Position numbers and translations under genes: made by a program
In this document: positions 2,903-57,464 of the stretch, one piece after another
Layout of the letters: the number at the start of each line of letters is the position of its first letter
Numbering within the stretch: the stretch's first letter is position 1
IMG/VR virus record: IMGVR_UViG_2724679538_000004
Location: 45,799 to 109,798 of that record
Length of the DNA: 64,000 bases
Direction: 5' to 3' (one strand)
Source of the DNA: a virus
Taxonomy: Duplodnaviria; Heunggongvirae; Uroviricota; Caudoviricetes
Notes under the pieces: model-generated
The model's database searches: none
Told to the model about the DNA's origin: nothing
The model's input: the letters and a program-made list of their open reading frames with translations, nothing else

Positions 2903-2922
2903 ATAGGTAAGTACTTATCTAT
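2903..2922. promoter_or_regulatory. copy of recurrent palindrome ATAGGTAAGTACTTAYCTAT
   Basis: Near-perfect inverted repeat directly after a stop codon; same motif recurs about 13 times in the window. Confidence 0.4.
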
Positions 2923-2928
2923 TAACAT

Positions 2929-2958
2929 GGGCCACTACATTTAGTGGCCCTTTTTATT
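2929..2958 (+). terminator. intrinsic terminator-like hairpin
   Basis: GGGCCACTACATTTAGTGGCCC stem-loop followed by a T-run. Confidence 0.55.
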
Positions 2959-2967
2959 TGGTGATAC

Positions 2968-5283
2968 ATGATAAGCATCGTAAAACGTAACGGCCAAACA
3001 GAGCCGTTATCCGAAGAAAAATACAACCGCGTCGTAATGTATGGCGTAGAAGGTATTCGTGGCGTAAGCGCATCAGCTGTAGCAATGGGAGCTGCGGCCA
3101 GTATTTTTGATGGGATGACCACCAGCCAGTTGCATGAGGCTTTGGTTAAATCTGCTGCGGACCTAATCTCTCCAGAGACACCAAACTACTCACAAGTAGC
3201 CGCACGTCTGAACATTTTCAAAATCCGCAAGCATGCATTCGGTCAATACGACTATCCGAATTTCTATCAACACATTGTTAAAAATGTCAACAAAGGCGTT
3301 TATGACGCAGATCTACTGAAATACTACTCGGTCGAAGAAATAGAGGAGCTTGGCATATACATTAAGCCTAAGCGTGATGAGCTTTTTGGTTATGCAGCTA
3401 CTGTTCAGCTACATAGCAAATACCTTGTCCAGAATCGTGTGACTGGAGAAATCTACGAGGGGCCACAACATATTTATATGCTGGTGGGCATGTGTCTGTT
3501 CCAGAATTGGGAAGACGACTGCGCTGGCAAAACTCGTATGGAGATGGTCAAAGGCTTCTATGACATCACCAGTACGTTCAAATTGTCCTTGCCGACCCCA
3601 ATCATGGCAGGCGTTCGTACTCCTACTCGCCAGTTCTCCAGTTGTGTGCTGATTGAGTCTGGGGATAGTCTGAAAGGGATTAGTGCAGCTTCAGCCGCAA
3701 TTATCGACTACGTTTCACGTCGTGCTGGAATTGGTATTGGTTTTGGCCGCATACGTGCGCTGGGAAGTGAGATCCGCAATGGTGAAGCCACCCATACCGG
3801 AGTTCTTCCATTCCTGAAGCATTTCCAGACTGCTGTTAAATCTTGCTCGCAAGGTGGTGTTCGTGGTGGAGCAGCAACAGCGTTTTACCCGATCTGGCAT
3901 CTTGAAGTTGAAAGTCTGCTGGTGGTGAAAAACAACCGAGGTATCGAGGAAAACCGTGTTCGCCATCTTGATTACGGAGTAATGATCAATCGCCTCATGT
4001 ATCGCCGACTTGTTCGAGGCGAGAACATTACTCTGTTCAGTCCGCATGATGTGCCTGATATGTACGAAGCCTTCTTTACAGATCAGGATCTGTTTGAAAA
4101 GCTGTACCATAAATACGAAGCCGATGATTCAATCCGCAAGAAGTCAGTACCTGCCGTTGAGCTGTTTTCATCTCTGATGCAGGAACGAGCGTCCACTGGC
4201 CGCATTTATATTGCGAACGTCGACCATATTAATGAGCATGGTGCTTTTATTCCTGCTCTTGCACCTGTTCGTCAGTCAAACCTGTGCATGGAGATCACCC
4301 TACCCACTCGTCCACTGACATTTACCGACGATCCGAACGGTGAGATCGCGCTGTGCACTTTATCAGCTTTTAACCTAGGAGCCATCCGTTCACTGGAGTC
4401 TCTTAAAGAGGTTGCGTTCTATGCCGTGGCTGCACTGGATTCGCTACTGGATTATCAAGACTATCCGATGGATGCAGCGAAAGTGCCTGCCAAAGCTCGT
4501 CGTAGCCTGGGGATTGGTGTAACCAACTTTGCTTATTACCTGGCAAAGAATGGCGTTCGTTATTCTGATACCGCTGGCAATAAACTGGTGCATGAAACGT
4601 TTGAAGCTATCCAGTATTACCTTCTTGATGCCAGTTGCCGACTTGCGGAAGCAAAAGGTGAATGTGACTGGTTTGAGCAGACCAGGTACGCAATTGGCCA
4701 GTTGCCGATCGACCACTACCGTTCTTCATTAGACGAAAGTGACGAAACTAACTTTGAATTAAAGATGCCGTGGGAAGAACTGCGTGAACGAATTGCAAAA
4801 CACGGCCTTCGCAATTCCACGCTGACGGCACAAATGCCATGTGAGACTTCCAGCCAGATCACTAACTCCACCAACGGCATTGAACCGCCTCGTGGCCCGG
4901 TGTCAGTGAAATCTTCTAAGGACGGCATCGTCAAGATGGTCGTGCCTGAGTTTGAAAAATTGAAGGAACAGTATGAATACCTGTGGGATATGCCGGACAA
5001 CCGCGGCTATCTGACAAAGGTGGCGATCATCCAGAAGTTCTTCGACCAGGCTATTTCAGCCAATACCAACTATGACCCTTCTCGCTTTGAAGGCGATAAA
5101 GTTCCAATGATGACGCTACTGTCAGATTTGCTTCTTGCCTACAAGATGGGAGTTAAAACGCTTTACTACCACAACACCAGAGATGGTGCAGGAAAGCGTG
5201 ATGACGACGAACCGCAGAATCCACTGGCGCAAGCTGTAGCCGTCGAGCCAGAAGATGAGTGCGACGGAGCCTGCAAAATCTGA
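2968..5283 (+). CDS. nrdA: ribonucleoside-diphosphate reductase alpha subunit (class Ia)
   Basis: 771 aa; N-terminal ATP-cone-like region; catalytic SNLCMEI motif; overall resemblance to E. coli NrdA. Confidence 0.9.
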   Translation: MISIVKRNGQTEPLSEEKYNRVVMYGVEGIRGVSASAVAMGAAASIFDGMTTSQLHEALVKSAADLISPETPNYSQVAARLNIFKIRKHAFGQYDYPNFYQHIVKNVNKGVYDADLLKYYSVEEIEELGIYIKPKRDELFGYAATVQLHSKYLVQNRVTGEIYEGPQHIYMLVGMCLFQNWEDDCAGKTRMEMVKGFYDITSTFKLSLPTPIMAGVRTPTRQFSSCVLIESGDSLKGISAASAAIIDYVSRRAGIGIGFGRIRALGSEIRNGEATHTGVLPFLKHFQTAVKSCSQGGVRGGAATAFYPIWHLEVESLLVVKNNRGIEENRVRHLDYGVMINRLMYRRLVRGENITLFSPHDVPDMYEAFFTDQDLFEKLYHKYEADDSIRKKSVPAVELFSSLMQERASTGRIYIANVDHINEHGAFIPALAPVRQSNLCMEITLPTRPLTFTDDPNGEIALCTLSAFNLGAIRSLESLKEVAFYAVAALDSLLDYQDYPMDAAKVPAKARRSLGIGVTNFAYYLAKNGVRYSDTAGNKLVHETFEAIQYYLLDASCRLAEAKGECDWFEQTRYAIGQLPIDHYRSSLDESDETNFELKMPWEELRERIAKHGLRNSTLTAQMPCETSSQITNSTNGIEPPRGPVSVKSSKDGIVKMVVPEFEKLKEQYEYLWDMPDNRGYLTKVAIIQKFFDQAISANTNYDPSRFEGDKVPMMTLLSDLLLAYKMGVKTLYYHNTRDGAGKRDDDEPQNPLAQAVAVEPEDECDGACKI

Positions 5284-5287
5284 CATA

Positions 5288-5320
5288 TGGTGGGGGATAT
5301 CCCCACCTTCTCTTTGATTT
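5288..5320 (+). terminator. terminator-like hairpin
   Basis: GGTGGGGGATATCCCCACC hairpin followed by a T-rich stretch. Confidence 0.45.
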
Positions 5321-5344
5321 GTAAGCCTTGTTTAAACACATAAG

Positions 5345-5364
5345 ATAACAACTTGTTTAAACAC
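5345..5364 (+). promoter_or_regulatory. promoter/operator family motif (AACAACTTGTTTAA)
   Basis: Near-palindrome AAACAA-N-TTGTTT about 25 nt upstream of the nrdB start. Confidence 0.4.
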
Positions 5365-5388
5365 ACCAAAAAGCAAAAGGAAAAACAC

Positions 5389-6609: not shown

Positions 6610-7485
6610 ATGAATTTTACCAAACTGAAAGACCACCTAAAGATTGCCACGGATCGTCTCGTTGGTTTCAAGGCTGAACCATATGAAATCAATGAAGGTC
6701 ACGTTATGGCGACGGAAGCTATTTACCAAATGGTCGATCAGTTTCATGAACTCTTTCAACACCCGCGTCGTGTGGTGCCAACACCGGAATTACTTCGTCT
6801 CCGTGCCAGATTGATTCATGAGGAAGCTGTAATAGAAGGCATCCCAGCCGCACAAAAAGGAGACATTGAGCAGCTGCTGGATGCAATGGCTGATTTTCTC
6901 TATGTAGGTGTAGGCACAATGGTCGCAGTTAAAGGTGGTATTTCTACAGGTATGACTTACTACACGCAGGAACAAAGCATTGATCGCTTTATTGAGACAT
7001 TCTTTGTGCCTCAGAATACTGTGTTCGATGACATGGCTATTCCATTCAAAGAAGCTCAGCAGGCGGCTGTGATGCTTGAAGAGTTGGCTGACAAACTTGA
7101 AAAGAAAACCATGAGAGATCCTGAACTGATTCAGGAGCTACGCCGTGTAATGAATAAAATTTACGTCGCGTGCATGATGACATATCGACTCGCTGATTTC
7201 TTGGGTGTCGATGTTGTTGAGCTGGTACGTGAGATTCATCGTTCCAACATGACTAAATTATGGCCTGCGGATATGGAAGAGCGCCAAAAGGCTGTAGAGA
7301 ACTGCAAATACGACAAACACGATCTAAGTTTTCGCCATGCGGACGGGACAGACATGATGATAGGCTTTCGTGTTTCAGATGGAAAAATACTCAAATCGCC
7401 AACATACAGTGACGTTGATCTTACTGCGTTTGTAGCGCAGGCGAAGTCTTCTGCAATATATGATGAAGTTAAAAAATTATTGTAG
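6610..7485 (+). CDS. all-alpha NTP pyrophosphohydrolase-like protein (MazG/HisE/dimeric-dUTPase superfamily), putative
   Basis: EExxE...D...D pattern (IHEEAVIEG...LLDAMADFLY) typical of the superfamily; sits in the nucleotide-metabolism cluster. Confidence 0.4.
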   Translation: MNFTKLKDHLKIATDRLVGFKAEPYEINEGHVMATEAIYQMVDQFHELFQHPRRVVPTPELLRLRARLIHEEAVIEGIPAAQKGDIEQLLDAMADFLYVGVGTMVAVKGGISTGMTYYTQEQSIDRFIETFFVPQNTVFDDMAIPFKEAQQAAVMLEELADKLEKKTMRDPELIQELRRVMNKIYVACMMTYRLADFLGVDVVELVREIHRSNMTKLWPADMEERQKAVENCKYDKHDLSFRHADGTDMMIGFRVSDGKILKSPTYSDVDLTAFVAQAKSSAIYDEVKKLL

Positions 7486-7629
7486 GTAGTTACTTATGTG
7501 TGTATATTAATTTTGTGTACTAACTACACCTGGTAAGAGAATCTTCGTATATTTTGGTGGCCATGTGCCACCATTTTTTTTGTCATCTGGTCTTGCCTGG
7601 TTTTCGCGTGTAAACTCTCACTTATGAAT

Positions 7630-7650
7630 AATAGGTATGTACTTATCTAT
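7630..7650. promoter_or_regulatory. copy of recurrent palindrome (AATAGGTATGTACTTATCTAT)
   Basis: Inverted repeat 18 nt upstream of the thyA-like start. Confidence 0.4.
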
Positions 7651-7667
7651 CTTTTTGTGGGGTTTAT

Positions 7668-12577: not shown

Positions 12578-12606
12578 TGGTTGATATGCATTTGAGGAAA
12601 TGAAAA

Positions 12607-12628
12607 AATAGGTAAGTAGTTACCTATA
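12607..12628. promoter_or_regulatory. copy of recurrent palindrome (AATAGGTAAGTAGTTACCTATA)
   Basis: Inverted repeat 13 nt upstream of the Dam-like start. Confidence 0.4.
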
Positions 12629-13236: not shown

Positions 13237-13335
13237 TCTGTCTGGGAGTGTTCTTGGACCTGCTTCTGTATAAATAAATACATACTAATATATTAATATA
13301 CAGATGCAGGTTTTTTGTAGCAAACGTGCCAGACC
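13237..13335. repeat. nested-hairpin element (outer GTCTGGG/CCAGAC, inner AT-rich CCTGCTTCTGTATA/TATACAGATGCAGG, T-run)
   Basis: Read directly; a paralogous element lies at 42805-42903. Confidence 0.5.
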
Positions 13336-13416: not shown

Positions 13417-13647
13417 ATGGTCTATCAAACAAACGTTGTAGCGCTCGTTGAGAGCGATTTTCTAGCCCAGGCGCGTGAAATGCTTAAAGATCGCGAGCGG
13501 GCGTTTAATTTGTATGAATGGGCACTCAAATGCCTACATCTTGGCGAGCATAAAGAACTTGTTGAACAGCTGTTAGGTGAGTTGATTAATGAGGTGTTTG
13601 CCTTAAACGTCCAGCTACATGGGCGAGAAAGTAACCAACCCCAATAA
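13417..13647 (+). CDS. hypothetical small protein
   Basis: 76-aa ORF with AAGGAA RBS. Confidence 0.35.
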   Translation: MVYQTNVVALVESDFLAQAREMLKDRERAFNLYEWALKCLHLGEHKELVEQLLGELINEVFALNVQLHGRESNQPQ

Positions 13648-14183
13648 TAGATAAGTACCTACTATTCATATTATTTATCTTAAGTGATAGGATACTATAG
13701 TTTTCAGTCCATGTACTGGAGACTCGACCTGATGGGTGGAGGGTAGCGTCACTGGCGTCAGGTTTAAAAAAAAGCTCACTACCAGCGTAGAACCGGTGCC
13801 GTTTAGGCGCTGGGGAAGGGGGAACCAGAGTGAGCAGAGACAAGGGTCACTTTATGATTGTCGAGTCTGGGAAGTTCGAGAGGTTGAATCCAGTACTCCC
13901 CTTCATAAAGTGTGGGAAGATCTCGGTTCTGGGATGCTGTCATCCATAACTTCCCAAGCTTAAGCTGGCAGTAGACTTAAGCCATAACTTTTCAGGTTAT
14001 GAAACGACCAGGTTGGTGAGGAACTTTTGTACTCACCTCCCTGGGAGGATATTACCTGAAAAGACAACCTCTCACTTCGTTCGAGGTGAACTTCACTCAC
14101 TTCGTTCGTTCAGTTCAGATTAATTAAAAACCTCTTCTGGGAAGTAAGGTTTTAAAAAATAAATTTATTATTAATAAGTTATA

Positions 14184-14246: not shown

Positions 14247-14843
14247 ATGACGACGAAGACACCAGCCCGATCGCAAGCAAAAACTCTCAAAAAAGCCAAA
14301 AACAAAAATTCTCCCCGCACCAATCACACAACGCCTGTCGTAGAGTTCAATCCCCAGCTTAAAACCGTGAAAATCTTTAGTGATGGCTCTTGCCTTAAAA
14401 ATCCGGGTGGTCCTGGCGGTTACGGTATCGTTCTCCAGTATCGTGGTGAGGAACGCGAGTTCTCAGATGGTTTTCATAGCACCACTAATAACCGCATGGA
14501 GATGATGGGCGCACTCATCGGGCTGGAGCGTTTGAAATATCCATGCAACGTTATTTTGTACTCTGATAGCCAGTATCTGAAAAACGGCATGACACAGTGG
14601 ATGAAATGGTGGAAACGAAATGGATGGATGACTTCTGATAAAAAACCGGTAAAGAATGTTGATCTGTGGAAGCGTCTGGATGAGGCCGCAAGTCGACATA
14701 ATGTTCGCTGGAAGTGGGTTAAAGGCCATGCGGGACATCGTGAAAACGAGATCTGTGATCGTCTTGCTAAGATTGCAGCATTCACTGCCGCTGATACTCC
14801 ATTTAAAAAAGATTTAGGTTTTTTGAATCAAAATAGTAAGTAA
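14247..14843 (+). CDS. rnhA: ribonuclease HI with basic N-terminal extension
   Basis: [45 protein letters not shown] align with E. coli RNase HI; ATG 14247 preceded by CAGGAG. Confidence 0.85.
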
Positions 14844-14985
14844 GTATTTACCTATTATTTAGATTAAGGTATTCTGATCACCGTCAGGATGACAATGTGT
14901 CGGTGAGACACAGTTCCAGGATGGAACGGGAAAGGCGGCTGGTTAATGCCAGCCGCAACTCTTTCTGACACTGGATGGAGTCCTA

Positions 14986-18663: not shown

Positions 18664-20349
18664 ATGACAACTGCCCTTTCAATCACTGACACCTTCAAAA
18701 CAAGTTCAGAAGTTGACTATCGAAAAGAGCTTAACCTCATCCATAAAATCGTTGCAGAGTGCGAACGCGAGATCGCTTTCATGCGCCAGGTACATGATTA
18801 CGTATATGGCGATGAACGCCATAAGATGATTAATCGTTTGTTACGACTTAACTACCGTCCAGATGATGAGAACGCTCGTTTTAATAACATTGTACTGGAC
18901 AAGGCTGATCTCGAATGGGTGAAGCAGAACATCTGGGCTGAATACTGGAAAAAGGTCACTGATATGACTAACGTTCTGCTGATCATGCCAGCTTCCCGTC
19001 GCGAGGAGTGGCGTGAGCAATTTATCGAGGGCAAGCAGGAAATCACCAAAACTGACAGAACTGGCTACCAGATGAAGGTTAAGGAGTTCGTTGGAGTACC
19101 CGAGTTCAAGGTAGAAACTGTCATACCAACGATGATTAGCCTTCTAAATGACAGACATAAATATCTTTCTGAGCGCGTGTACGGTTTGTTTAAGGTGCTG
19201 AGTCCTGCACATAAGACCAACAAAACGAACGGCTTTAGCGAACGTTTGATCATTGCCAATTGCATTACTGATTTTTGGCGGGATAGCGTAAGTGTTAATT
19301 ATAAGCTTGAGGACTACATTGACGATCTGCGGGTATTGCTGCATTTCTTCGCGCACAAAGAGTTCATTACTATTAATCGCAGTTCGCAGATGCTATCCCT
19401 GGCATACAGAGCTAATGGCTGCAACACCGGTGAGTGGGTGAGCGTCGACGGCAATTTAATGCGTGTGAAGATGTTCAAGAACGGTAACGTTCACTTCGAA
19501 ATCCACCCTGACGTGGCCTGGAAGTTGAATGAAGTTCTGGCGCACAGTATGCCATCAGCCATACCTGCACCATGTCGTACCGCGCCAAAAACGCGAGCGC
19601 CAAAAGAGTTTGGCACTATTCATAAGATTATTTCAGACCCTGTACGAATCGCTTTGCGAGACGGACGACGTACCCGTAATCAAGAAGCCTGGTACTTTTC
19701 TGATTCATGTTTGCAGAAAAATCAGGTGGAAGAGTTGGAGCGTACATTAAGTTTTATTGGAGGAGTACGGGAGAACAGTCAGTGGACGTTCCCCTATGAT
19801 GCGACACAAACAATAAACAGTATCGTTGATACGGGGCTAGTTCCAGAAGCGAAATCACACCAGTTCTATCCAACACCGCATGTAATCGCTGAGTATGTGG
19901 CGAGAGCGATCGATCATAAGCCTGGAGAAACTCTTTTGGAACCGGAAGCCGGGCGTGGTGATTTGTTGTCCTGTATTGACGCTAACCGGGAAGATATTAC
20001 CTGCATAGAATTAGCTCCCCTTTTTGCGGATATCCTCCGTTCAAAGGGGTACGCGAATACGATTTGTTGCGACTTCTTGAAATGGTCAGAGAGTAATGCA
20101 GGCTATCAATTCGACAAAATCGTTATGAATCCCCCCTACTCTTTTAATCGCTATAAAGAGCACACGCTATCTGCTCTTGGGCATCTGAAAGTTGGAGGCA
20201 GGCTGGTGGCCGTGTTGCCGGGAAACTCGCCTTCGCTTAATTGGATGACTTTGGATAATTACGTTTATGCAAAGGGGAAATCTTTCACTGGTGAGTTCGC
20301 TGATACGGGGGTTACTGTCAGCGTGTATGTCTTCAAACGCGTAAAATAA
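18664..20349 (+). CDS. DNA methyltransferase with a ~400-aa N-terminal domain of unknown function
   Basis: C-terminal ~160 aa carries FYPTP, LEPEAGRGDL (SAM-binding) and NPPY motifs; ATG 18664. Confidence 0.65.
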   Translation: MTTALSITDTFKTSSEVDYRKELNLIHKIVAECEREIAFMRQVHDYVYGDERHKMINRLLRLNYRPDDENARFNNIVLDKADLEWVKQNIWAEYWKKVTDMTNVLLIMPASRREEWREQFIEGKQEITKTDRTGYQMKVKEFVGVPEFKVETVIPTMISLLNDRHKYLSERVYGLFKVLSPAHKTNKTNGFSERLIIANCITDFWRDSVSVNYKLEDYIDDLRVLLHFFAHKEFITINRSSQMLSLAYRANGCNTGEWVSVDGNLMRVKMFKNGNVHFEIHPDVAWKLNEVLAHSMPSAIPAPCRTAPKTRAPKEFGTIHKIISDPVRIALRDGRRTRNQEAWYFSDSCLQKNQVEELERTLSFIGGVRENSQWTFPYDATQTINSIVDTGLVPEAKSHQFYPTPHVIAEYVARAIDHKPGETLLEPEAGRGDLLSCIDANREDITCIELAPLFADILRSKGYANTICCDFLKWSESNAGYQFDKIVMNPPYSFNRYKEHTLSALGHLKVGGRLVAVLPGNSPSLNWMTLDNYVYAKGKSFTGEFADTGVTVSVYVFKRVK

Positions 20350-20369
20350 TAGGTAAATACTTACTTAAA
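20346..20369. promoter_or_regulatory. copy of recurrent palindrome (AATAATAGGTAAATACTTACTTAA)
   Basis: Overlaps the stop codon of the methyltransferase gene. Confidence 0.35.
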
Positions 20370-20410
20370 ATATGTAAGAATGTAGTTAGTTGAAGACGAG
20401 AGAAAAGCAC

Positions 20411-26292: not shown

Positions 26293-26312
26293 TACTGTAT
26301 GTACATACAGTA
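26293..26312. promoter_or_regulatory. LexA (SOS) box
   Basis: Perfect 20-bp palindrome TACTGTATGTACATACAGTA (CTGT-N8-ACAG) about 15 nt upstream of the UmuD'-like start. Confidence 0.8.
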
Positions 26313-30900: not shown

Positions 30901-30924
30901 ATTGTAAGTAACTACTTACAATAA
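30901..30924. promoter_or_regulatory. copy of recurrent palindrome (ATTGTAAGTAACTACTTACAATAA)
   Basis: Inverted repeat about 40 nt upstream of the next start. Confidence 0.35.
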
Positions 30925-30963
30925 TAGAATTACCTCGTTCGTTAACTTACATACAGGGAGAGT

Positions 30964-33490: not shown

Positions 33491-33539
33491 CTGAGAAGAG
33501 GGCCAGAAACGGCCCTTTCTCTATAGCCACCAGCTGCCG

Positions 33540-39361: not shown

Positions 39362-39385
39362 AATAAGTAAGTGCTTATCTAATGG
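39362..39385. promoter_or_regulatory. copy of recurrent palindrome in a divergent intergenic region (AATAAGTAAGTGCTTATCTAATGG)
   Basis: Lies between the minus-strand helicase and the plus-strand ParB-like gene. Confidence 0.35.
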
Positions 39386-40080: not shown

Positions 40081-40748
40081 TGACCAAAAAGTTTGAAATC
40101 GTATATCGCAATCCGGCAGATCTCATTCCTTACGAGATGAATGCCAAAAAGCATGATGAACAGCAGATCCGAGATCTGGCCGCAGCCATTAAAAAGCGCG
40201 GATTTGACCAGCCAATTACGGTCGATAAGAACGACGTAATTATTACTGGCCACGGCCGCCGTGAGGCTGCAATTTTTGCTGGGCTTGAGCGCGTACCAGT
40301 TATTGTTCGCGATGATCTGAGTGATGACGAGGTTCGTGCGAAGCGCCTTGAAGATAACCGACTCGCCAGCATTGATTACGATGCAATTAAGCTACAGAAA
40401 GAGCTTGAGTCGCTTGTTCTGGACGATATCGAGGTTTTCGGCTTTGAAGAGCGAGAGTTGAATGTTCTCGTTGGCAGCATGACTGAGGAAATGGATACCG
40501 ACTCGTTAGTTATCGATCTGGGCGAAGAAACCAAACGACAGAAGGATGAGCACACCGAAATCAGTCGTGAAGTTGCAGCGGAAGAAGTGCGCGTTGTCGA
40601 CGTATTGGGCTTTAAAACGCTCCCTGCTGGCTCTGCCATTGTTGTTGGTGATTTGCTTGCCCACATGGAAGAAATGACTGGAGAAAGCGGGGTAGACGCA
40701 TTTGTGGCATATGCGGAGAAGATCTCTTCCGGGGAGATGACTGCATGA
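40080..40748 (+). CDS. ParB-like nuclease-domain protein 2
   Basis: ITGHGRREAAIFAG ParB box; TAATG coupling with AAGGAG RBS. Confidence 0.65.
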   Translation: MTKKFEIVYRNPADLIPYEMNAKKHDEQQIRDLAAAIKKRGFDQPITVDKNDVIITGHGRREAAIFAGLERVPVIVRDDLSDDEVRAKRLEDNRLASIDYDAIKLQKELESLVLDDIEVFGFEERELNVLVGSMTEEMDTDSLVIDLGEETKRQKDEHTEISREVAAEEVRVVDVLGFKTLPAGSAIVVGDLLAHMEEMTGESGVDAFVAYAEKISSGEMTA

Positions 40749-41383
40749 GCAAATACATCATCAACGTATCGTTTCAGACTCGCGTAAATAAAACCACGCG
40801 CACGTTGGAAATCGCCGAGTCGTTCGGGCTTGGCCTTGACGAAAAAGAGTGGACGCTTTACGACAATCTGGAGCTGGAAGTTAAGCAGGGCGATGTAGTG
40901 TACATCACCGGCCAATCCGGTTCAGGCAAATCAGTTGTGCTGCGCGAACTGCAACGCCAGATGAAAGATGAAGGGCTTTCTGTGGCCTCCATCGATGATT
41001 TTACATTCGACAATGATGTTAACGTCATCGACCAGCTAGGGAAAACAACCAGCGAAGCGCTGGGGCTGCTGTCTATGGCCGGATTGAATGACGCCTATCT
41101 CTTTGTGCGCAAACCTTCCGAAATGTCTGACGGTCAGAAATATCGTCTCAAGATCGCCAAGCTAATTGAGTCAGGCGCAAAAGTGTGGGCTGCGGACGAG
41201 TTCGGTGCTGTTCTTGATCGTGTAACGGCGCAGGTCGTGGCGTCCAATCTACAGCGTGCAGCCCGTAAAGTTGGGGCGACGGTGATGGTTGCGACAACTC
41301 ATGAGGACCTTAAAAACGCTCTTCGTCCTGATATGCAGATCACTAAGCACTATAAAGAGCGAGTGAAGGTGGAATATGCCTGA
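40745..41383 (+). CDS. small ABC-type ATPase
   Basis: Walker A GQSGSGKS, signature-like SDGQKYR, Walker B AADEFG, H-loop TTHE; ATGA coupling. Confidence 0.6.
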   Translation: MSKYIINVSFQTRVNKTTRTLEIAESFGLGLDEKEWTLYDNLELEVKQGDVVYITGQSGSGKSVVLRELQRQMKDEGLSVASIDDFTFDNDVNVIDQLGKTTSEALGLLSMAGLNDAYLFVRKPSEMSDGQKYRLKIAKLIESGAKVWAADEFGAVLDRVTAQVVASNLQRAARKVGATVMVATTHEDLKNALRPDMQITKHYKERVKVEYA

Positions 41384-41630
41384 TTTGAAGATTGTAGAGC
41401 TGAAGCCATCGAAAGAGGATGACAATAACAATGTTGAGGTCATCCGCTTGCTGGAAGAAGCACTCCAGTACGCCAGAGAAGGCAAATCCCAGAGTCTGGC
41501 GCTGCTGATGATCAATAACGACGGCAGTGTCATGGATTGCTGGCATAACGGTGGGCGTCCTTACGTCATGGTTGGGGCGATGGAATCGCTTCGCCTGGAC
41601 TTCATCAATGCCAATATAGAGCGCAGGTGA
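41376..41630 (+). CDS. hypothetical small protein
   Basis: 84-aa ORF overlapping the ATPase gene. Confidence 0.4.
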   Translation: MPDLKIVELKPSKEDDNNNVEVIRLLEEALQYAREGKSQSLALLMINNDGSVMDCWHNGGRPYVMVGAMESLRLDFINANIERR

Positions 41631-41635
41631 TCGAC

Positions 41636-42526
41636 ATGACAGACATCATCATCAAACGCTACCGCCTTGAAGAGTTTCCGCGTCATCTGGACTTTCTGGA
41701 GCGAATGACTGTCACAAAGGGGACTGTAGAGGACTGGCACGCTCTTAAGTCGCTTCACTACAAAACTGACGGCAAACCTTTCGCACCAACTTATTATCGC
41801 TGCGAACTGGATGGCCGTCTGGTGGGCGTCGTGGTAATGGCTTACCCGAAACTTTTGCTGGCACCTCGCCATCGCATGTTTCCTAAGTTGAAACCAACCA
41901 CTAACACCACCGTGGCGAACCAGTACTGGGGGCGATACGTGAATAACAACTTTGCGGTGATCAGTCGCTCAGTTGTGGATACTCAGTACCGTGGCGTTGG
42001 CGTCTCTTATCGAATGATTAACCTGGTTAGCAGGATGCATGATCGGCCAATAATTGAGATCCAGTCCTCAATGAGCAAATACAATCCCTTCGCCATGAAA
42101 GCAGGGTTCAAGTTCATCCGCCCTGAGCGACCGAAGAGCTATGAAAGTGCACTGCGTGTGTTCCAGCGCCATTTCCGCTCCGACCCGGGAGATAACGAGG
42201 CGATCGTCAAAGAGTTGTTCGCAATGAGCGAGTCCCGTCGTCGCCGTGCACTGCGTGATCTGGTGGCGGACTACCACAAGAACAGTTCCCTGGCAAAAGC
42301 TGGGCGGAATCGTGGCACGACGATTCAGGACATTGCCGACAGTCTCGTGGACGAGGCCAGCATAGTGAAGCTGCTCAAGGACATTCACAACCTGAGCTTT
42401 ACGTCTCCGTTGTATGGTGTGTACCGAAACCCTGACTTTGGCCGTCGACTGCCTGATTCGCTGCCACTGCTGGCATTCGACAAACAACCTTTGGATAAAC
42501 CGTTAGAAATTGCTTTACCGGCATAA
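41636..42526 (+). CDS. GNAT-like acyltransferase-fold protein (putative)
   Basis: VVDTQYRGVGVSYRMINLV resembles GNAT motif A (Q/R-x-x-G-x-G/A). Confidence 0.45.
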   Translation: MTDIIIKRYRLEEFPRHLDFLERMTVTKGTVEDWHALKSLHYKTDGKPFAPTYYRCELDGRLVGVVVMAYPKLLLAPRHRMFPKLKPTTNTTVANQYWGRYVNNNFAVISRSVVDTQYRGVGVSYRMINLVSRMHDRPIIEIQSSMSKYNPFAMKAGFKFIRPERPKSYESALRVFQRHFRSDPGDNEAIVKELFAMSESRRRRALRDLVADYHKNSSLAKAGRNRGTTIQDIADSLVDEASIVKLLKDIHNLSFTSPLYGVYRNPDFGRRLPDSLPLLAFDKQPLDKPLEIALPA

Positions 42527-42535
42527 GGATTTGCC

Positions 42536-42802
42536 ATGACGTTAACCGATAAACAAAAGGACATTATCAAAACGCTCAATCTCGGTTATGAACGAGGACA
42601 TCTACTTGATCTGGACGAATTGCTTGAAGTTTTGCCCTACAAAACATCTAAGCAAAGTATCCAGTTCTCTATTCGCGCACTGATCAAAAAAGGGCTGGTG
42701 GAGAAAGGAAACACTCGCCAGCGCAGTGATACTCGATATCACCGTCGTACTCTTGGGTTAACTACTTTAGGTCGAGCACGAGCCAAATTACTGGTGATGT
42801 AA
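42536..42802 (+). CDS. small basic protein, possible winged-helix DNA-binding
   Basis: 88-aa basic ORF. Confidence 0.35.
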   Translation: MTLTDKQKDIIKTLNLGYERGHLLDLDELLEVLPYKTSKQSIQFSIRALIKKGLVEKGNTRQRSDTRYHRRTLGLTTLGRARAKLLVM

Positions 42803-42804: not shown

Positions 42805-42903
42805 GGTCTGGGGTGCTTATTTAAAGCCTGCGTCTGTATATATAAATAATAAATAACTTATTAAATATATACGGAAGCAGGTTCAATAAGACACGCCCAG
42901 ACC
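42805..42903. repeat. nested-hairpin element paralogous to 13237-13335
   Basis: Outer GGTCTGGGG/CCCAGACC, inner CCTGCGTCTGTATATATA/TATATACGGAAGCAGG. Confidence 0.5.
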
Positions 42904-43631: not shown

Positions 43632-44887
43632 TGTCGATCCCGTCTTCTCTGAGTCTTGTGCAGCTGCATTCTGGGCAGATGAAGGTGTTCCAGTCGCCAC
43701 ATCGATTTAAGGTGGTATGCGCAGGTCGTCGCTGGGGTAAGTCCAGGTTGTCGATCTCAACCATAATTCGTGCGGCAGCAAAGAGCAAAAAGCAAAGAGT
43801 CTGGTACGTAGCGCCGACCTATCAAATGGCACGCCAGATTCTGTGGGATGACCTACAGGAAGTTCTGCCTCGCAAGTGGGTTCGTAAAAAGAACGACACC
43901 ACGATGACAATCGTGTTGAAGAACGGTTCTGAGATCGCCCTCAAAGGTGCTGATAAACCTGACACTCTGCGCGGCGTAGCGTTGCATTTTGTAGTGCTTG
44001 ATGAATTTCAGGATATGAAGGCTGATACCTGGTACAAGGTATTACGACCTACTCTTTCATCGACACGAGGCGGTGCACTGATCATTGGTACGCCAAAAGG
44101 ATTCTCGGAATTTCACAAACTGTGGACCATCGGCCAGAACATTGAGCTGCAAAGAAAAGGACAGTGGAAGAGTTGGCAGTTTGTTACCGCTGATTCTCCG
44201 TTTGTGCCTACTGCCGAAATCGAAGCGGCAAAGAACGATATGGACCCGAAGTCCTTTGCGCAGGAATACCTGGCCAGCTTCGAAAACATGTCAGGTCGTG
44301 TTTATTACCCGTTTGATCGTAACGTGCATGTGAAGCCACTCCAGTTCAATCCGAAACTACCTATTTGGGTTGGGCAGGATTTCAACATAGACCCGATGTC
44401 TTCTGTAATTTTGCAACCACAGCCAAACGGTGAACTATGGGCAGTTGATGAGTTGGTACTCTTCTCATCAAACACGGCAGAAGTGTGTGACGAACTGGAA
44501 CGACGCTATTGGCGATGGAAATCGCAGGTGACGATTTTTCCTGACCCCGCTGGGGCATATCGTCAGCACGCGCGAGGTGAATCAGATGTCGATATCTTTA
44601 AAGAAAAGGGATTCTTACGTGTTGACTATTCGAAGAAGCACCCGCCGATTGCAGATCGTGTGAATGCTGTAAACCGTATGCTGATGAGCGCATCAGGTGA
44701 AGTTCGTCTCTATGTCGATCCTAAGTGCAAGCACCTCATAGATTCTCTTGAAAAGGTTATCTACAAGCCCGGATCTCGTGACATGGATAAGTCAGGTGGG
44801 GTTGAGCACAGCGCAGACGCATTGGGCTACCCAGTTCATCGTAGGTATCCGGTGAAAAATCGTGTTATTCTTGGTGGATCTAGATAG
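43631..44887 (+). CDS. terminase large subunit
   Basis: Walker A VVCAGRRWGKSRL, Walker B FVVLDEFQD; followed by the portal gene. Confidence 0.75.
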   Translation: MSIPSSLSLVQLHSGQMKVFQSPHRFKVVCAGRRWGKSRLSISTIIRAAAKSKKQRVWYVAPTYQMARQILWDDLQEVLPRKWVRKKNDTTMTIVLKNGSEIALKGADKPDTLRGVALHFVVLDEFQDMKADTWYKVLRPTLSSTRGGALIIGTPKGFSEFHKLWTIGQNIELQRKGQWKSWQFVTADSPFVPTAEIEAAKNDMDPKSFAQEYLASFENMSGRVYYPFDRNVHVKPLQFNPKLPIWVGQDFNIDPMSSVILQPQPNGELWAVDELVLFSSNTAEVCDELERRYWRWKSQVTIFPDPAGAYRQHARGESDVDIFKEKGFLRVDYSKKHPPIADRVNAVNRMLMSASGEVRLYVDPKCKHLIDSLEKVIYKPGSRDMDKSGGVEHSADALGYPVHRRYPVKNRVILGGSR

Positions 44888-44903
44888 GTAAGTACTTACC
44901 TAT
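44884..44903. promoter_or_regulatory. copy of recurrent palindrome (ATAGGTAAGTACTTACCTAT)
   Basis: Perfect copy overlapping the TerL stop codon, 19 nt before the portal start. Confidence 0.4.
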
Positions 44904-44921: not shown

Positions 44922-46496
44922 ATGGAATTGGATGACAAACAAATTAAAGATTTAGTGGCAAGACGCCACCCTGAATACGAAAAGAAAAAGACACATTGGG
45001 ACTTCCTCGCCAGCACTTACGCTGGTGGGCGTGGTTGGTTCGCTGACAACATCTTTCGTTATTTCAAAGAAGGCGATCAGGAGTTTAAGGAACGTCTTGA
45101 GCGTGCTTACCGCTTCAATCACACCCGTGAAGTAGTAAACCTCATTAATAAATACCTGTTTAAAGAAGATATCCATCGAAACACAGAGGAAGCGCCTGAG
45201 CAGATCCGTAACTTCTGGAAAAGAGCGACACGCCAGAATGCATCTATCGACTCATTTATGGCTGCTATCGATTTGCAATCGTCAATCTATGGCCGTATTT
45301 GGGTTGTTGTAGATAGCACAATGAATGGTGATGTGGAGTCAGTCGCTGATGAGAAGAGGAAGAATGCACGTGCCTATGCCTACTGGATTTCCCCTCAACA
45401 AATGCTGGATGTGGCATGGGATGATGACGGCAATATGTTATGGGCGTTAATTGTGGAAGTTGCTCGTGATGATGCAGATCCATTTACTTCAACCGGTCAG
45501 GAATACCAACGTTATCGTCTGTGGACACAAAACGAGTGGTATCTGTTCCGTGAAGAAGTTAAGAAGAGCGCTGGCGGAGCCGGTCGCCGTCAGGCAAAAG
45601 TTATTTTAGAGGATAGCGGTGAACATAATCTCGGCGTAGTTCCCGTGTTTCCTGTTGATTGTATTGGAGAAAGCGAATCACCGTATTTCAGTCCATCGTT
45701 AATCGATGACATCGCATATCTTGATCGTGCTGTAGCCAACTATTTGTCTAACCTTGATGCCATTATTCAGGATCAAACTTTCAGTCAGTTGGCTATCCCC
45801 GTGCAGTCGATGATGCCTGGTGATGAAAGCCATAGCAAGGTGCTGGAAATGGGCACAAAACGAGTTTTCACCTACGATTCTGAAGGTGGAAACCAGCCGT
45901 TTTATCTTTCTCCAGATCCAAAACAAGCTCAGATGATCATCACTACGATTAAGACGGTGATTAATGAAATCTACCATTCAGTTGGTGTTGCTGGCGAACG
46001 AACGAAGCAGGATAACGCACAGGGAATCGATAACTCTTCTGGTGCCGCTAAGATGTATGACTTCCAGCGAGTTAACAGTCTGCTGGTCACAAAAGCAGAG
46101 CGTCTTGAAAGGGCAGAGCGACAAATTATGCAACTTGTCGCTAAATGGATGGGAGTCGAGCTGGATGAAGACCATTCTCTAATTGCTTACCCTGAGAGTT
46201 TTGATATTCGCGGTCTTACTGACGAATTTGCTGTTGCTGAGAAGCTGTCAATGCTTCAAGCGCCTGATTCTGTACGTCGTCGTCAGATGGAAATGCTCAT
46301 CGAGAAGATTTTCCCGAATATCACTGAGGCGATGAAAAAGGAATTTGATAAAGATCTCTTGAATTTTCCGCCAAAAAATGATCTAAATACCCTTGAAAAT
46401 AAGTCAGTACTTACTTATCATCGAGATACAGCTCAAGAAACCGAGCAAGATCAACCCCGAGGGAGTGGGGACTCATCTACTCAAGAAACCGAGTGA
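44922..46496 (+). CDS. portal protein (putative)
   Basis: 524 aa; position between terminase and scaffold. Confidence 0.6.
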   Translation: MELDDKQIKDLVARRHPEYEKKKTHWDFLASTYAGGRGWFADNIFRYFKEGDQEFKERLERAYRFNHTREVVNLINKYLFKEDIHRNTEEAPEQIRNFWKRATRQNASIDSFMAAIDLQSSIYGRIWVVVDSTMNGDVESVADEKRKNARAYAYWISPQQMLDVAWDDDGNMLWALIVEVARDDADPFTSTGQEYQRYRLWTQNEWYLFREEVKKSAGGAGRRQAKVILEDSGEHNLGVVPVFPVDCIGESESPYFSPSLIDDIAYLDRAVANYLSNLDAIIQDQTFSQLAIPVQSMMPGDESHSKVLEMGTKRVFTYDSEGGNQPFYLSPDPKQAQMIITTIKTVINEIYHSVGVAGERTKQDNAQGIDNSSGAAKMYDFQRVNSLLVTKAERLERAERQIMQLVAKWMGVELDEDHSLIAYPESFDIRGLTDEFAVAEKLSMLQAPDSVRRRQMEMLIEKIFPNITEAMKKEFDKDLLNFPPKNDLNTLENKSVLTYHRDTAQETEQDQPRGSGDSSTQETE

Positions 46497-47431: not shown

Positions 47432-48313
47432 ATGCCATTACTGCGTGAAGAAGCTGAAAAGCTGTCTAATAACGAACTTGAACAGGGCGTGATTGAAACC
47501 ATCATCGATCGCGATGACTTGTTCGCAATCCTGCCGTTCATGAAGATTAATTCCAAGGCGTACCTGTACAATCGTGAGGCTACCCTGAGCGAAGCAGAGT
47601 TCATCGACGTGAACGACACCATCACCGAAGGTGCAGCAACCTTCACTGAACATGTAGCGAAGCTGCGTATTCTGGCGGGTGATGTAGACGTCGACAAATT
47701 CCTGGCAACCACGATGGCAGATACCAACAACCAGCTGGCTATCCAGGTTCGTCAGAAAGTAAAAGGTCTGGCTCGCGCATTCCGTCGTAATCTGATTCTG
47801 GGGGACTCCAGTTCCAACAATAAGGCGTTTGATGGCATTCCTCGCCTGATGCACGCCGATCAGAAGATCGATATCGCAAAAGCCGCTATGACCTTCTCAA
47901 TGTTCGACGAACTGGTCGATGCGGTTAAAGATCTTGGTGCTGACTGCATCATGATGCGCTCAGAACATCTGCGTGCATATCGTGCACTGCTGCGTACCGT
48001 TAACGTTGGTCCGTCTGAAATTATGATGGAGAATTTCGGTCGTCCGATGCTGTGCCATAACGGTGTGCCGTTCATCGTAAACGACTTTATTCCGCTGACC
48101 ACCGAGAAGGATGCAGCAGACATCTACTGCCTGCACCTGTCGGAAGAAAATGGTGTAACTGGTCTGTATGGCGGCGACAACGCAGGTATTGTCGTAGAGA
48201 ATATTGGTACTGTTCAGAACAAAGACGCTACGCGTACTCGTGTGAAATGGTACTGCTCTCTGGCGAACAAGCACGACAAGGCTATCGCTGCGCTGACCAA
48301 TGTAAAAATTTAA
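47432..48313 (+). CDS. major capsid protein (putative)
   Basis: 293 aa; strong RBS; followed by palindrome and a strong terminator; assigned by position. Confidence 0.55.
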   Translation: MPLLREEAEKLSNNELEQGVIETIIDRDDLFAILPFMKINSKAYLYNREATLSEAEFIDVNDTITEGAATFTEHVAKLRILAGDVDVDKFLATTMADTNNQLAIQVRQKVKGLARAFRRNLILGDSSSNNKAFDGIPRLMHADQKIDIAKAAMTFSMFDELVDAVKDLGADCIMMRSEHLRAYRALLRTVNVGPSEIMMENFGRPMLCHNGVPFIVNDFIPLTTEKDAADIYCLHLSEENGVTGLYGGDNAGIVVENIGTVQNKDATRTRVKWYCSLANKHDKAIAALTNVKI

Positions 48314-48320: not shown

Positions 48321-48342
48321 AATAGGTAAGCACTTACCTATG
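48321..48342. promoter_or_regulatory. copy of recurrent palindrome (AATAGGTAAGCACTTACCTATG)
   Basis: Directly after the capsid gene. Confidence 0.4.
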
Positions 48343-48350
48343 CTTTCAAG

Positions 48351-48377
48351 GGGTGGGCTTTGCGCCCACCTTTTTTC
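48351..48377 (+). terminator. intrinsic terminator
   Basis: GGTGGGCTTTGCGCCCACC plus TTTTTT. Confidence 0.65.
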
Positions 48378-50574: not shown

Positions 50575-50958
50575 GTGTTTATTGAAGCATTTGCCAACTT
50601 AATGCAGAAGGCAAAGATTGGTACTGTAGGTACAGATATTTTCTGCCATTACATGCCAGCCGATGTTAAATCTGGCGTACTACTGATCAATCCGAATACC
50701 GGTATCAGTATTGATCACGAGTTACAGGGCTTTTATCACGAGTCGTTTACTATCATTGTCCGTGGCGCAACGATTACCAAAACAATCGAAAAGGCAAACA
50801 AGATAATTGATATGTTTCCTATTCAGGAAACAGAATCCAATGGCGTCTTTTTTCGTCTTGTGCGTCCTCTGTCAATGCCGATCACTTATCCAAAAAACGA
50901 CGGTGCATTAATTGAAGCAGGTATACCAATTGAATTTGCTGGCTATTTATTGAATTAA
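50575..50958 (+). CDS. tail completion-like protein (putative)
   Basis: GTG 50575 with GAGAGG RBS; position. Confidence 0.35.
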   Translation: MFIEAFANLMQKAKIGTVGTDIFCHYMPADVKSGVLLINPNTGISIDHELQGFYHESFTIIVRGATITKTIEKANKIIDMFPIQETESNGVFFRLVRPLSMPITYPKNDGALIEAGIPIEFAGYLLN

Positions 50959-50961
50959 ATT

Positions 50962-50985
50962 AATAGGTAAGTATATACTTACTAC
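50962..50985. promoter_or_regulatory. copy of recurrent palindrome (AATAGGTAAGTATATACTTACTAC)
   Basis: Upstream of the major tail gene. Confidence 0.35.
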
Positions 50986-51032
50986 ACGCGCAATGATTGT
51001 GCCGATTTAACGGAAAAAGGAGTTTTCCATCA

Positions 51033-57050: not shown

Positions 57051-57092
57051 CAAACGGCTGCCCAGCATTGGGCAGTCTCACAAGGATGTGAA

Positions 57093-57428
57093 ATGGAAAG
57101 GAAAACATTTAACTGGTATCCAGATTACGAGTCTGAAAAGACGGTTAAACCTAATGTTACCGTTCTGAATTTTGGTGACGATTATGAGCAGCGTCAGTCT
57201 AATGGACTAAATCGCATCAAAGAAGAATGGTCACTGACCTTTACTCGAACGTGCGCTGAGATCAACGCTATTGATGACTTTTTGACTGAGCGTGCAGGTG
57301 TAGAGTCATTTTATTGGACGAATCCAAGAGGCAAGCAGATAGTCGTTGTGTGTGACACTCATACAGTGAAACGTTACAGAGGCTATTTCCTTCTGACCGC
57401 AACATTCCGACAAGTTTTTGAAGTTTAA
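57093..57428 (+). CDS. minor tail protein (lambda gpM-like position and size)
   Basis: 111-aa ORF directly after the tape-measure gene. Confidence 0.5.
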   Translation: MERKTFNWYPDYESEKTVKPNVTVLNFGDDYEQRQSNGLNRIKEEWSLTFTRTCAEINAIDDFLTERAGVESFYWTNPRGKQIVVVCDTHTVKRYRGYFLLTATFRQVFEV

Positions 57429-57438
57429 TCTACCCACT

Positions 57439-57464
57439 GGATAAGTAAGTACTTATTTACTATT
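57439..57464. promoter_or_regulatory. copy of recurrent palindrome (GGATAAGTAAGTACTTATTTACTATT)
   Basis: Read directly. Confidence 0.35.

Follow-up and report, generated by a model that had tools for sequence, protein, structure and literature searches.

The 64-kb stretch of phage DNA analysed here (the window) belongs to an SSU5-like phage-plasmid, and it raises the question of what a 20-bp palindrome that recurs at its gene boundaries is for. Our reading, held at a probability of roughly 60% and built on comparison of DNA sequences, is that the palindrome is the operator of one phage HTH repressor, placed over the sigma-70 promoters of lytic genes so as to keep the prophage silent. A near-identical record that would supply the rest of the replicon was sought, and the best match was ~90% identical.

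The consensus palindrome, ATARGTAAGTACTTACYTAT, was found at 14 places in the window, where 0 are expected. With up to three mismatches there were 8 matches in the window and 0 in 100 dinucleotide shuffles, with up to four mismatches 11 and 0, respectively, and a symmetrised weight matrix returned 13 window sites with a score of at least 12, against 0.0 in shuffles. This comparison with shuffled sequence, which the initial annotation had proposed, places the motif far above chance, and conservation in related phages, another of its proposed checks, was borne out: SSU5, PhiR41_1 and pJN2-26 each carry 23-28 copies of the motif in their genomes, where fewer than 0.3 are expected. All 13 copies listed in that annotation are present, displaced by a few bases at most, but its total of about 13 overlooked a copy in the portal gene (46399-46418), so that the real number is 14. 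The copy that it gave as 7481-7498 is real and conserved in relatives, but it matches the consensus weakly and fits best at 7478-7497.

Four of the 14 copies depart from the consensus in steps of 4 bp. The centre is widened by 4 bp at 30901-30924 and 50963-50986, and one arm carries an additional 4-bp unit at 14832-14856 and 57439-57464. Each 10-bp arm is built of two tandem 4-bp units, A-TAAG-TAAG-T. The copies and the promoters predicted around them are as follows.

2903..2922: candidate operator ATAGGTAAGTACTTATCTAT, upstream of nrdA, in the spacer of a predicted promoter; conserved in five lineages
2900..2928, plus strand: predicted sigma-70 promoter TTGATA-17-TAACAT surrounding the preceding copy, on which a consensus scan and our own model agree; hexamers conserved across lineages, with TACTAT instead in pJN2-26
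2929..2950, plus strand: intrinsic terminator stem, then a T-run
7478..7497: weak candidate operator variant TATTGTAGGTAGTTACTTAT, where the upstream gene ends; orthologous variants in SSU5 (72357) and pJN2-26 (9622)
7480-7485 and 7503-7508: predicted promoter at the 7478 copy, -35 TTGTAG, 17-bp spacer, -10 TATATT; hexamers identified by eye in the window, SSU5 and pJN2-26, and returned by no scan
7631..7650: candidate operator 18 nt 5' of thyA
12581..12609, plus strand: predicted extended -10 promoter TTGATA-17-(TG)n-AAAAAT of the methylase gene, from the independent scan, with TG flagged; -35 and TG conserved in five lineages, spacer variable
12608..12627: candidate operator spanning about -8 to +12 of the methylase promoter, beginning at its last two bases and with the predicted start site at the palindrome centre; followed by SD and ATG (12641)
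13647..13666: degenerate candidate operator ATAGATAAGTACCTACTATT after a small gene; orthologues in SSU5 (78709), PhiR41_1 (13826) and pJN2-26 (15673)
14832..14856: candidate operator lengthened by a single TAAG unit and running over the RNase HI stop codon; the TTTACC of the right half (14847-14852) is usable as a -35 for TATTCT (14870-14875)
20349..20368: candidate operator abutting the upstream gene's stop codon and covering about -39 to -20; a conserved extended -10, TGTAAGAAT, lies downstream at 20373-20381
30901..30924: wide-centre variant directly 3' of a terminator T-run; its left half TTGTAA (30902-30907) would serve as -35, with a 17-bp spacer and -10 TAGAAT (30925-30930), retained as TAnnAT in four lineages
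39363..39382: candidate operator in the 64-bp divergent region between a helicase operon (minus strand) and a ParB-like/terminase operon (plus strand)
44884..44903: perfect copy overlapping the TerL stop codon; poor promoter prediction; decayed in PhiR41_1
46393..46421, plus strand: predicted promoter TTGAAA-17-TATCAT at the end of the portal gene, its spacer formed by the candidate operator 46399-46418
48322..48341: candidate operator flanked by the major capsid gene and a strong terminator (48348-48375); the one promoter element present is a weak -10, TATGCT
50950..50986, plus strand: wide-centre candidate operator (50963-50986) and predicted promoter upstream of the major tail gene; -35 TTGAAT (50950-50955), 18-bp spacer, -10 TATACT (50974-50979) within the palindrome
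57438..57466, plus strand: predicted promoter TGGATA-17-TATTAT whose spacer is the candidate operator 57441-57460, lengthened by a unit in its right arm

Although the window is ~86% coding, 12 of the 14 sites are wholly or largely clear of called ORFs. Of the two exceptions, 46399 is truly coding (portal gene 3' end), and 13647 overlaps a minus-strand ORF that is probably spurious. The stop-codon overlaps reported at 14836, 20349 and 44884 are correct, as is the remark that some copies precede an intrinsic terminator, with terminators directly downstream of 2903, 48322 and 57441. These terminators are distinct elements that adjoin some copies: the palindrome itself has an A+T-rich stem and no T-run, where an intrinsic terminator needs a stem rich in G+C and a T-run after it. 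The predicted start of the 2900..2928 promoter (~2934-2936) falls inside the 5' arm of the terminator at 2929..2950, and transcripts from it should thus escape that terminator; likewise, a terminator stem begins at 57468, and the predicted start of the 57438..57466 promoter is within its 5' arm. Promoter and preceding terminator overlap at 2900-2950 and 57438-57497 in a compact design.

An RNA processing hairpin was among the functions proposed at the outset, and more generally the palindrome might work in RNA as a cleaved hairpin, a 3'-end stabiliser or the target of a translational repressor, e.g. one like FljA. An 8-10-bp stem can be drawn from the sequence, and certain copies lie just 5' of an SD or just before a terminator. 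However, when 62 distinct sites were compared, 85.5% of cells were paired, as against 85.6% in shuffles, and the covariation score was 0.132 as against 0.135, a value reached by 298 of 500 shuffles. Over 71 sites G·T and A·C combinations were equally numerous (58 each), giving no sense-strand preference for G·U, and palindrome positions 4 and 17 varied independently. Because the arms vary independently and covariation is at the shuffled level, the palindrome looks like a double-stranded DNA site for a dimeric protein and not like an RNA hairpin. Several copies (30901 and its orthologues) directly follow a terminator T-run, which together with the lack of covariation and the G·U/A·C symmetry led us to reject the processing hairpin. 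The stem is also too short for RNase III, and Rfam returned no family at gathering score for the palindrome.

The window does encode a strong FljA family member (35630-36226; PF03614, E = 2.5e-83), and Salmonella members of this family act on fliC mRNA (PMC2652032). This protein is attractive as the binder, being window-encoded, but is an unlikely one: the Acinetobacter relative has the motif system without a FljA-like gene, no palindrome lies near the gene, the E. coli fliC leader has no such palindrome, and the protein is not among the lysogen-expressed genes in the excerpt of PMC9928086 used here. Altogether, we regard a role in RNA as highly improbable.

Conserved sigma-70-type -35/-10 hexamers overlap the palindrome at seven window loci (eight operator copies), and the hexamers are retained from lineage to lineage amid varying surroundings. 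Two of the predicted promoters (2900..2928 and 12581..12609) were recovered by an independent consensus scan as well; as a class, promoter-like matches in the window are not enriched over shuffles, so that any single promoter call is weak. Over the 71 sites, a full promoter score of at least 8 was obtained at 31 on the gene strand and at 7 on the opposite strand, and the Acinetobacter lineage gave the same pattern. At 44884 and 48322, two of the best copies, there is no convincing promoter. Several sites lie immediately 3' of a terminator T-run, which leaves no space for a promoter upstream of them.

The position of the palindrome relative to the promoter depends on the locus: it occupies the spacer, or lies over the -35, or over the start site, and our promoter model placed the -10 at motif position -3, 12, 18, 21 or 35. 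We also considered a single fixed register, with the -10 read from the TAT end of the motif. This was rejected, as a -10-like hexamer at the palindrome end is equally frequent in the two orientations (55% and 59%), which makes the hexamer part of the symmetric site; in addition, the methylase start codon is at motif position 32-34 in four lineages. Such a variable register is the behaviour of a repressor's operator and not that of an activator site or a phage-specific promoter. The suggestion of a phage-specific promoter therefore holds in so far as the sites are on promoters, but these promoters are ordinary sigma-70-like ones, and the palindrome has no constant position on them.

The same observations bear on the possibility that the palindrome is the recognition element of activator-dependent promoters, as are the late promoters of P1 with Lpa. 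In the P1 late promoters, RNA polymerase together with Lpa recognises a -10 hexamer and, at -22, a 9-bp inverted repeat. In the annotated P1 record they have the form AAGTTACTT-N4-TAnnAT, which resembles the core AAGTACTT with TATnAT 3 bp later; the P1 palindrome, AAGTnACTT, similarly lies between the -35 position and the -10. P1 is likewise an enterobacterial phage-plasmid, and a good -35 is missing at many of our sites. Nevertheless, the P1 arrangement has a fixed register (centre at about -22), a single orientation, late genes only and Lpa, and none of these holds here: the -10-like hexamer is as common in one orientation as in the other, the register differs between sites and places the palindrome over the start site at the methylase and XRE promoters, and the motif is found on both early and late genes. 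Near-consensus -35/-10 elements (TTGAAA-17-TATCAT) are already present at several sites. A search for a P1 Lpa homologue in four genomes by tblastn and phmmer returned nothing better than E = 0.2, which leaves room for a remote homologue. We therefore consider an activator-dependent promoter decidedly unlikely.

A modifying, nicking or restriction-type enzyme might instead recognise the palindrome, or it might be a mobile palindromic repeat. The centre, GTAC/AGTACT, is typical of a restriction-type palindrome, and the phage encodes two DNA methyltransferases. Against this, in the K. pneumoniae CP125183 lineage the arms are kept but the GTAC centre is found in 0 of 24 sites, the sites are at orthologous positions and do not move about, and such an origin leaves their intergenic confinement and promoter overlap unexplained. 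We give it hardly any credence. To our knowledge, the consensus of no host factor among CRP, Fur, LexA, TrpR, PdhR, the LacI family and the GntR family matches the motif.

An operator for a dimeric phage regulator is thus the favoured one of the four functions first proposed, the site being symmetric DNA in variable overlap with sigma-70 promoters: its inverted repeat falls within 14-20 bp, both arms follow one consensus without compensatory change, and core elements of predicted promoters are overlapped at the seven loci. In the model that we infer, a dimer of a phage-encoded HTH regulator would bind the two 10-bp arms. The operators would lie over core elements of host-type (sigma-70) promoters of replication, nucleotide-metabolism, packaging, head and tail genes, and RNA polymerase would be kept off a promoter whose operator is occupied. 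One protein would gate ~14 promoters in the window and ~25-30 in a whole genome. Four-bp-wider centres are hard to reconcile with a rigid dimer.

The likely binder, judged from gene neighbourhood and comparison among relatives, is an XRE-family HTH protein (~128 aa) whose gene is beside the integrase in related phage-plasmids. The gene is absent from the 64-kb window, and we assume that this replicon carries it because its relatives do, including the closest one, CMS-2020a. Homologues were found in 865 plasmid records, and among the 37 enterobacterial matches listed, every fully annotated one has the gene next to a site-specific integrase. The core GGTAAGTnCTTACC is located 27-31 nt upstream of the XRE start codon in four lineages (Cyrano, PhiR41_1, pJN2-26 and an Enterobacter plasmid), and there are two such sites at the gene in the K. 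pneumoniae CP125183 lineage and three in Acinetobacter. At the XRE promoter the palindrome is over the start site, and the protein would also occupy its own promoter.

SSU5, which was isolated as a free phage, has no XRE gene; alignment with a 99.4%-identical plasmid shows a 5.9-kb gap in SSU5 that spans the integrase and the XRE gene. In Cyrano, the XRE copy is among the lysogen-expressed genes and is named as putative master repressor (PMC9928086), and the 17-kb accessory region with lysogen-expressed genes contains 0 sites. The motif changes with lineage: in the Acinetobacter relative the XRE protein is 48% identical with an altered recognition helix, and a symmetrically changed palindrome, AGTCAGTACTGACT, is present in 27 copies, against 0.2 expected, at equivalent gene junctions. 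In pJN2-26 the XRE protein is only 56% identical and the motif is unchanged, which can be explained by a conserved recognition helix, yet weakens the argument from co-variation. Since the ParB-like proteins diverged in these same lineages too, co-variation points no more to XRE than to them, and the K. pneumoniae CP125183 lineage, which we considered as a discriminator between the two, has both proteins diverged.

The palindrome could accordingly be a loading or binding site of one of the two phage ParB-family proteins, encoded at 39382-40080 and 40047-40748, in the style of KorB on OB or Noc on NBS, with a CTP-dependent clamp or global regulator on ~30 dispersed palindromes. ParB-family proteins bind 14-16-bp palindromes. 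The first of the two proteins matches Pfam ParB_N and aligns with Spo0J (1vz0) over residues 23-172, a stretch that presumably runs on from the N-terminal domain to include HTH sequence; every motif-bearing genome, including SSU5 and the Acinetobacter plasmid, has ParB genes; and a site is on the promoter of the ParB genes themselves (39363; Acinetobacter 69366). However, the motif resembles no parS, OB or NBS sequence known to us. The ParB genes come first in the late packaging operon, itself preceded by an operator, and so cannot keep the prophage silent, and neither strict overlap with -35, -10 and start-site elements nor the clustering of sites at the XRE gene is expected of clamp-loading sites. 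ParB binding as the function of the motif thus appears unlikely. It is less likely still, and would have to be called a long shot, that the palindromes are both XRE operators and loading sites of a ParB-family CTPase clamp, a KorA/KorB-like pair that jointly silences or times ~30 promoters of a tailed phage; if true, this two-protein, clamp-based form of global control would be without a described precedent among viruses.

An XRE repressor acting at these operators would have its nearest likeness to several known systems in different respects. As with P1 C1, one repressor would serve many operators over a ~100-kb plasmid-prophage, in variable position on sigma-70 promoters and with several of them at the repressor's own gene; in the annotated P1 record, operators are marked at ssb, c4, repL/kilA, lpa and c1. 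P1 has 17-bp asymmetric operators to which a 283-aa C1 monomer binds, whereas here there are a 20-bp palindrome and a candidate 128-aa XRE-type HTH protein, and P1 late genes are under separate Lpa control, whereas the head and tail promoters here share the operator. With lambdoid CI/Cro, which are XRE-family proteins, the candidate system would have in common a dimeric HTH protein and a 14-20-bp palindrome over -35, -10 or start; operators at the repressor gene fit autoregulation, and repressor loss gives a lytic phage. Lambdoid phages have few operators, one immunity region and antitermination into the late genes, whereas operators are found here across the lytic gene set. In RK2/RP4 (IncP), short palindromic operators (7 OA and 12 OB sites in RK2) also recur at or near promoters, with one or two proteins, KorA/KorB, controlling most operons. 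The proteins, sequences and kind of element (a conjugative plasmid there, a phage here) differ, as does the number of sites, ~25-30 here. The structure of the KorA operator has been described (PMC2665229).

SSU5-like phage-plasmids are common. The 865 plasmid records with homologues of the candidate repressor come from Klebsiella, Escherichia, Enterobacter, Yersinia pestis, Salmonella and Acinetobacter, and the group is reported as a carrier of resistance genes (PMC9600943). Our literature search returned no account of lysis-lysogeny control in the SSU5-like group, and nothing on the motif or its core sequence. If the repressor-operator reading is true, the family as a whole would gain a known operator sequence, a repressor and a map of its promoters. 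The lytic behaviour of SSU5 would be explained by the absent 5.9-kb segment with integrase and repressor, and expression of the XRE gene is predicted to confer immunity to SSU5. The system would also give a simple means of inducing these plasmids or curing cells of them, or of constructing virulent derivatives for therapeutic use.

Scanning the window with a consensus and with weight matrices recovered all 13 palindromes listed in the initial annotation and added a copy at 46399-46418, within the end of the portal gene; the weak copy reported at 7481-7498 is real but lies at 7478-7497. The consensus had 8 matches with at most 3 mismatches and 11 with at most 4, against 0 in shuffles each time, and a symmetrised weight matrix gave 13 window sites at a score of at least 12, against 0.0 in shuffles. 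Twelve of the 14 window sites are essentially non-coding, in a window whose coding share is ~86%. The window begins with recombination and nucleotide-metabolism genes (nrdA, thyA, DNA methylase, RNase HI), passes through an accessory/regulatory region coding on both strands (~25-39 kb), and ends with the packaging, head and tail genes. In the accessory region, a UmuD-like S24 peptidase gene (26329-26718) is preceded at 17 nt by a LexA box close to the consensus (TACTGTATGTACATACAGTA, 26293-26312, 18/20 matches), which marks it as a predicted SOS-controlled gene.

The Escherichia phage-plasmids CMS-2020a and PhiR41_1 are ~90% identical to the 64-kb window, and Salmonella phage SSU5 ~83%. Complete SSU5, PhiR41_1 and Klebsiella phage pJN2-26 each carry 23-28 separate sites (25-38 matrix positions at score 10, merged), with <0.3 expected. 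When viral contigs were scanned for exact matches, the 20-mer appeared on 25 stretches from contigs of 13-112 kb (mostly 46-112 kb), several of which were used as orthologous rows in the promoter-region alignments. The palindrome is a real, functional element, whose forms are as follows.

Consensus and variant forms of the palindrome in the window
Consensus: ATARGTAAGTACTTACYTAT, with weak symmetric flanks (a-w-r left, y-w-t right)
14832-14856: extra unit in one arm
57439-57464: extra unit in one arm
30901-30924: centre 4 bp wider
50963-50986: centre 4 bp wider

Each arm is built of two tandem 4-bp units, TAAG-TAAG; in keeping with this, no spacings other than -2, +2 and +6 are seen between the half-sites TAAGTA and TACTTA. 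Deviant copies depart from the consensus by whole 4-bp units, and the extra-unit and wide-centre variants are kept in orthologues. The operator at the TerL/portal junction (44884), perfect in the window, is decayed and partly deleted in PhiR41_1 (GATAGGTGTGTGGTTATTTA, ~47640-47670), so individual sites are dispensable.

A processing hairpin in RNA had been among the functions proposed for the palindrome. Across mirrored positions of 71 sites from four genomes we counted 531 Watson-Crick, 58 G·T, 58 A·C and 134 other combinations, and the variable pair 4/17 (GC 19, AT 15, AC 19, GT 12) was distributed as expected under independent variation. For the 62 distinct sites the paired share was 85.5% (shuffles 85.6%) and the covariation score 0.132 (shuffles 0.135), a value equalled or exceeded in 298 of 500 shuffles; the arms thus each match one consensus, without mutual compensation. 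On the sense strand G·U was no better tolerated than A·C, several copies (30901 and its orthologues) begin just where the T-run of a terminator ends, and an Rfam search of the window gave no match. Together these observations argue for a double-stranded site for a symmetric dimer, not an RNA or single-strand hairpin, and action of the palindrome in RNA is essentially excluded.

The TAT end of the motif with its three flanking bases is often -10-like, but equally so on both strands (55% and 59%), so that it belongs to the symmetric site and carries no directional information. When a full -35/spacer/-10 model was applied (score >=8), the gene strand gave 31/71 sites vs 7/71 for the other strand. 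Alignments of orthologous regions showed conserved promoter hexamers in variable surroundings, and the position of the best-scoring promoter relative to the palindrome varied between sites.

Predicted promoters and associated elements at individual sites
Methylase: TTGnnA-17-TGnAAAAAT, ending at motif position 2; SD and ATG next
nrdA: TTGATA-17-TAACAT (TACTAT in pJN2-26), palindrome as spacer
Portal-internal site: TTGAAA-17-TATCAT
Site 20349: conserved TGTAAGAAT downstream
Sites 30901 and 7478: left arm TTGTAA serves as -35
Site 50963: TTGAAT-18-TATACT, -10 within the palindrome
Site 57441: TGGATA-17-TATTAT

The methylase -10 puts the predicted start site in the palindrome centre. Both this promoter and that of nrdA were also recovered by an independent consensus scan, in which promoter-like matches overall were not enriched, so that single promoter calls carry little weight; the strong copies 44884 and 48322 had no convincing promoter. 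Repressor operators typically show such a spread of positions (here -39 to +12), whereas activator sites and phage-factor promoters typically do not. The earlier proposal of a phage-specific promoter is supported in part: the sites overlap promoter hexamers, but these appear to be of the ordinary sigma-70 type. Its companion proposal, an operator for a dimeric phage regulator, is the best-supported reading, given the symmetric dimer-type site and its variable overlap with promoter hexamers, and we put at about 60% the probability that the palindromes serve as the operators through which one phage repressor controls early and late promoters.

A further possibility is a promoter element for an activator like Lpa of phage P1, whose late promoters (AAGTTACTT-N4-TAnnAT) resemble the motif core; the P1 -22 box AAGTTACTT (LPlyz, LPdar, LPs, LPsit) is very like the palindrome centre AAGTACTT, although the phage-plasmid families are unrelated, and the likeness may reflect chance or convergence. 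However, the palindromes lack the fixed register, single orientation and restriction to late genes of the Lpa class, and no Lpa homologue was found in the four genomes searched. This explanation is unlikely, though with a ParB/KorB-like binder it is one of the two main alternatives.

Position 2928 is the last of the nrdA -10 and 2929 the first of a terminator stem; for site 57441 the corresponding positions are 57466 and 57468. A start ~7 nt past the -10 would fall within the 5' arm of each stem, and these terminators would block upstream read-through while sparing transcripts from their own promoter. The overlapping arrangement holds poorly at site 48322. The long hairpin of a second repeat family has feet rich in G+C (CCTGCTTCTGTATA ... 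TATACAGAAGCAGG) and a top that is rich in A+T and weakly operator-like.

Copies of the second hairpin family
Window 13258-13311: followed by a T-run, terminator-like
Window 42826-42881: just upstream of the small terminase gene
SSU5 ~33455-33525 and ~78305-78375: followed by a T-run, terminator-like

A short stem-loop (GCGCAATGATTGTGC, 50988-51002) is present in the leader predicted for the major tail gene, and an invariant TTTAACGGAAAAAGGAG follows it. The matching sequence differs by lineage (GCACCGTGAAGGTGC in SSU5, GTGTCGGAATGACAC in pJN2-26) and the stem, judged by eye, is apparently kept, which suggests a conserved RNA structure.

Candidate binders encoded in the window
35630-36226, minus strand: FljA-family protein (PF03614 "repressor of phase-1 flagellin", E = 2.5e-83; PHROG "transcriptional repressor")
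39382-40748: two ParB-family proteins

The FljA-family gene was present in every SSU5-like enterobacterial genome examined and absent from the Acinetobacter relative; Salmonella FljA acts post-transcriptionally on fliC mRNA (PMC2652032). The two ParB-family genes are paralogues; they and, after them, two ABC-ATPase-like genes (39382-42526) head an operon running into the terminase genes. The Spo0J alignment of the first ParB-like protein extends past the N-terminal domain.

The candidate binder outside the window is a 128-aa XRE-type HTH protein (CYRAN_45 in Cyrano) that relatives encode beside the integrase; its gene occurs in 9/12 SSU5-like phage records and 865 plasmid records. An E. coli LF82 study places this gene among those expressed in the lysogen, as a putative master repressor (PMC9928086). 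In Cyrano, PhiR41_1, pJN2-26 and an Enterobacter plasmid, the XRE start codon is preceded, at a distance of 27-31 nt, by the core GGTAAGTnCTTACC; a -10-like TAATAT has the same placement as in the methylase promoter.

Distant lineages were also compared. Gene order is conserved in an Acinetobacter baumannii plasmid, whose XRE protein is 48% identical and differs in the recognition helix (GFKRPNVLSMIKSG vs GYKNANNLSLIKSG). The plasmid contains 27 copies of AGTCAGTACTGACT (0.2 expected). In this version TCAG replaces TAAG in both tandem units of both arms. The copies are found at the TerL/portal junction, between the capsid gene and a terminator, at the RNR genes and in the helicase/ParB divergent region, with three more in the XRE region; promoter geometry is likewise heterogeneous. 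In the K. pneumoniae CP125183 lineage, the XRE recognition helix is almost unchanged and the C-terminal part different; the arms are kept (ATAAGTAA-N4-TTACTTAT, 24 sites) and the GTAC centre occurs in 0/24, and two sites are located just upstream of the XRE gene. Both patterns are compatible with the palindrome being read by the XRE protein. The ParB-like proteins diverged in the same lineages, so co-variation alone does not separate the two. Binding by a ParB/KorB-like protein is unlikely but is the foremost alternative.

The XRE gene is absent from SSU5. Compared with an Enterobacter ludwigii plasmid (NZ_CP134668), to which it is 99.4% identical on one side of a gap at SSU5 ~42640-42676 and 93-98% on the other, SSU5 is without a 5.9-kb segment holding phoH, glutaredoxin and YafO toxin genes, the integrase gene and, together with its operator, the XRE gene. 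Operators retained in SSU5 thus do not count against the XRE protein. Loss of the segment fits the lytic behaviour of SSU5, which, from this comparison, appears to be recently derived from a plasmid prophage and to lack its repressor.

A literature search yielded no paper describing the motif or containing its core sequence. Among known systems, the nearest in function is P1 with its C1 repressor, for which the annotated P1 record shows operators at many scattered promoters; the KorA/KorB regulon of RK2 is a further parallel. The palindrome set is probably a new example of a well-known repressor-operator kind, carried by a widespread family.
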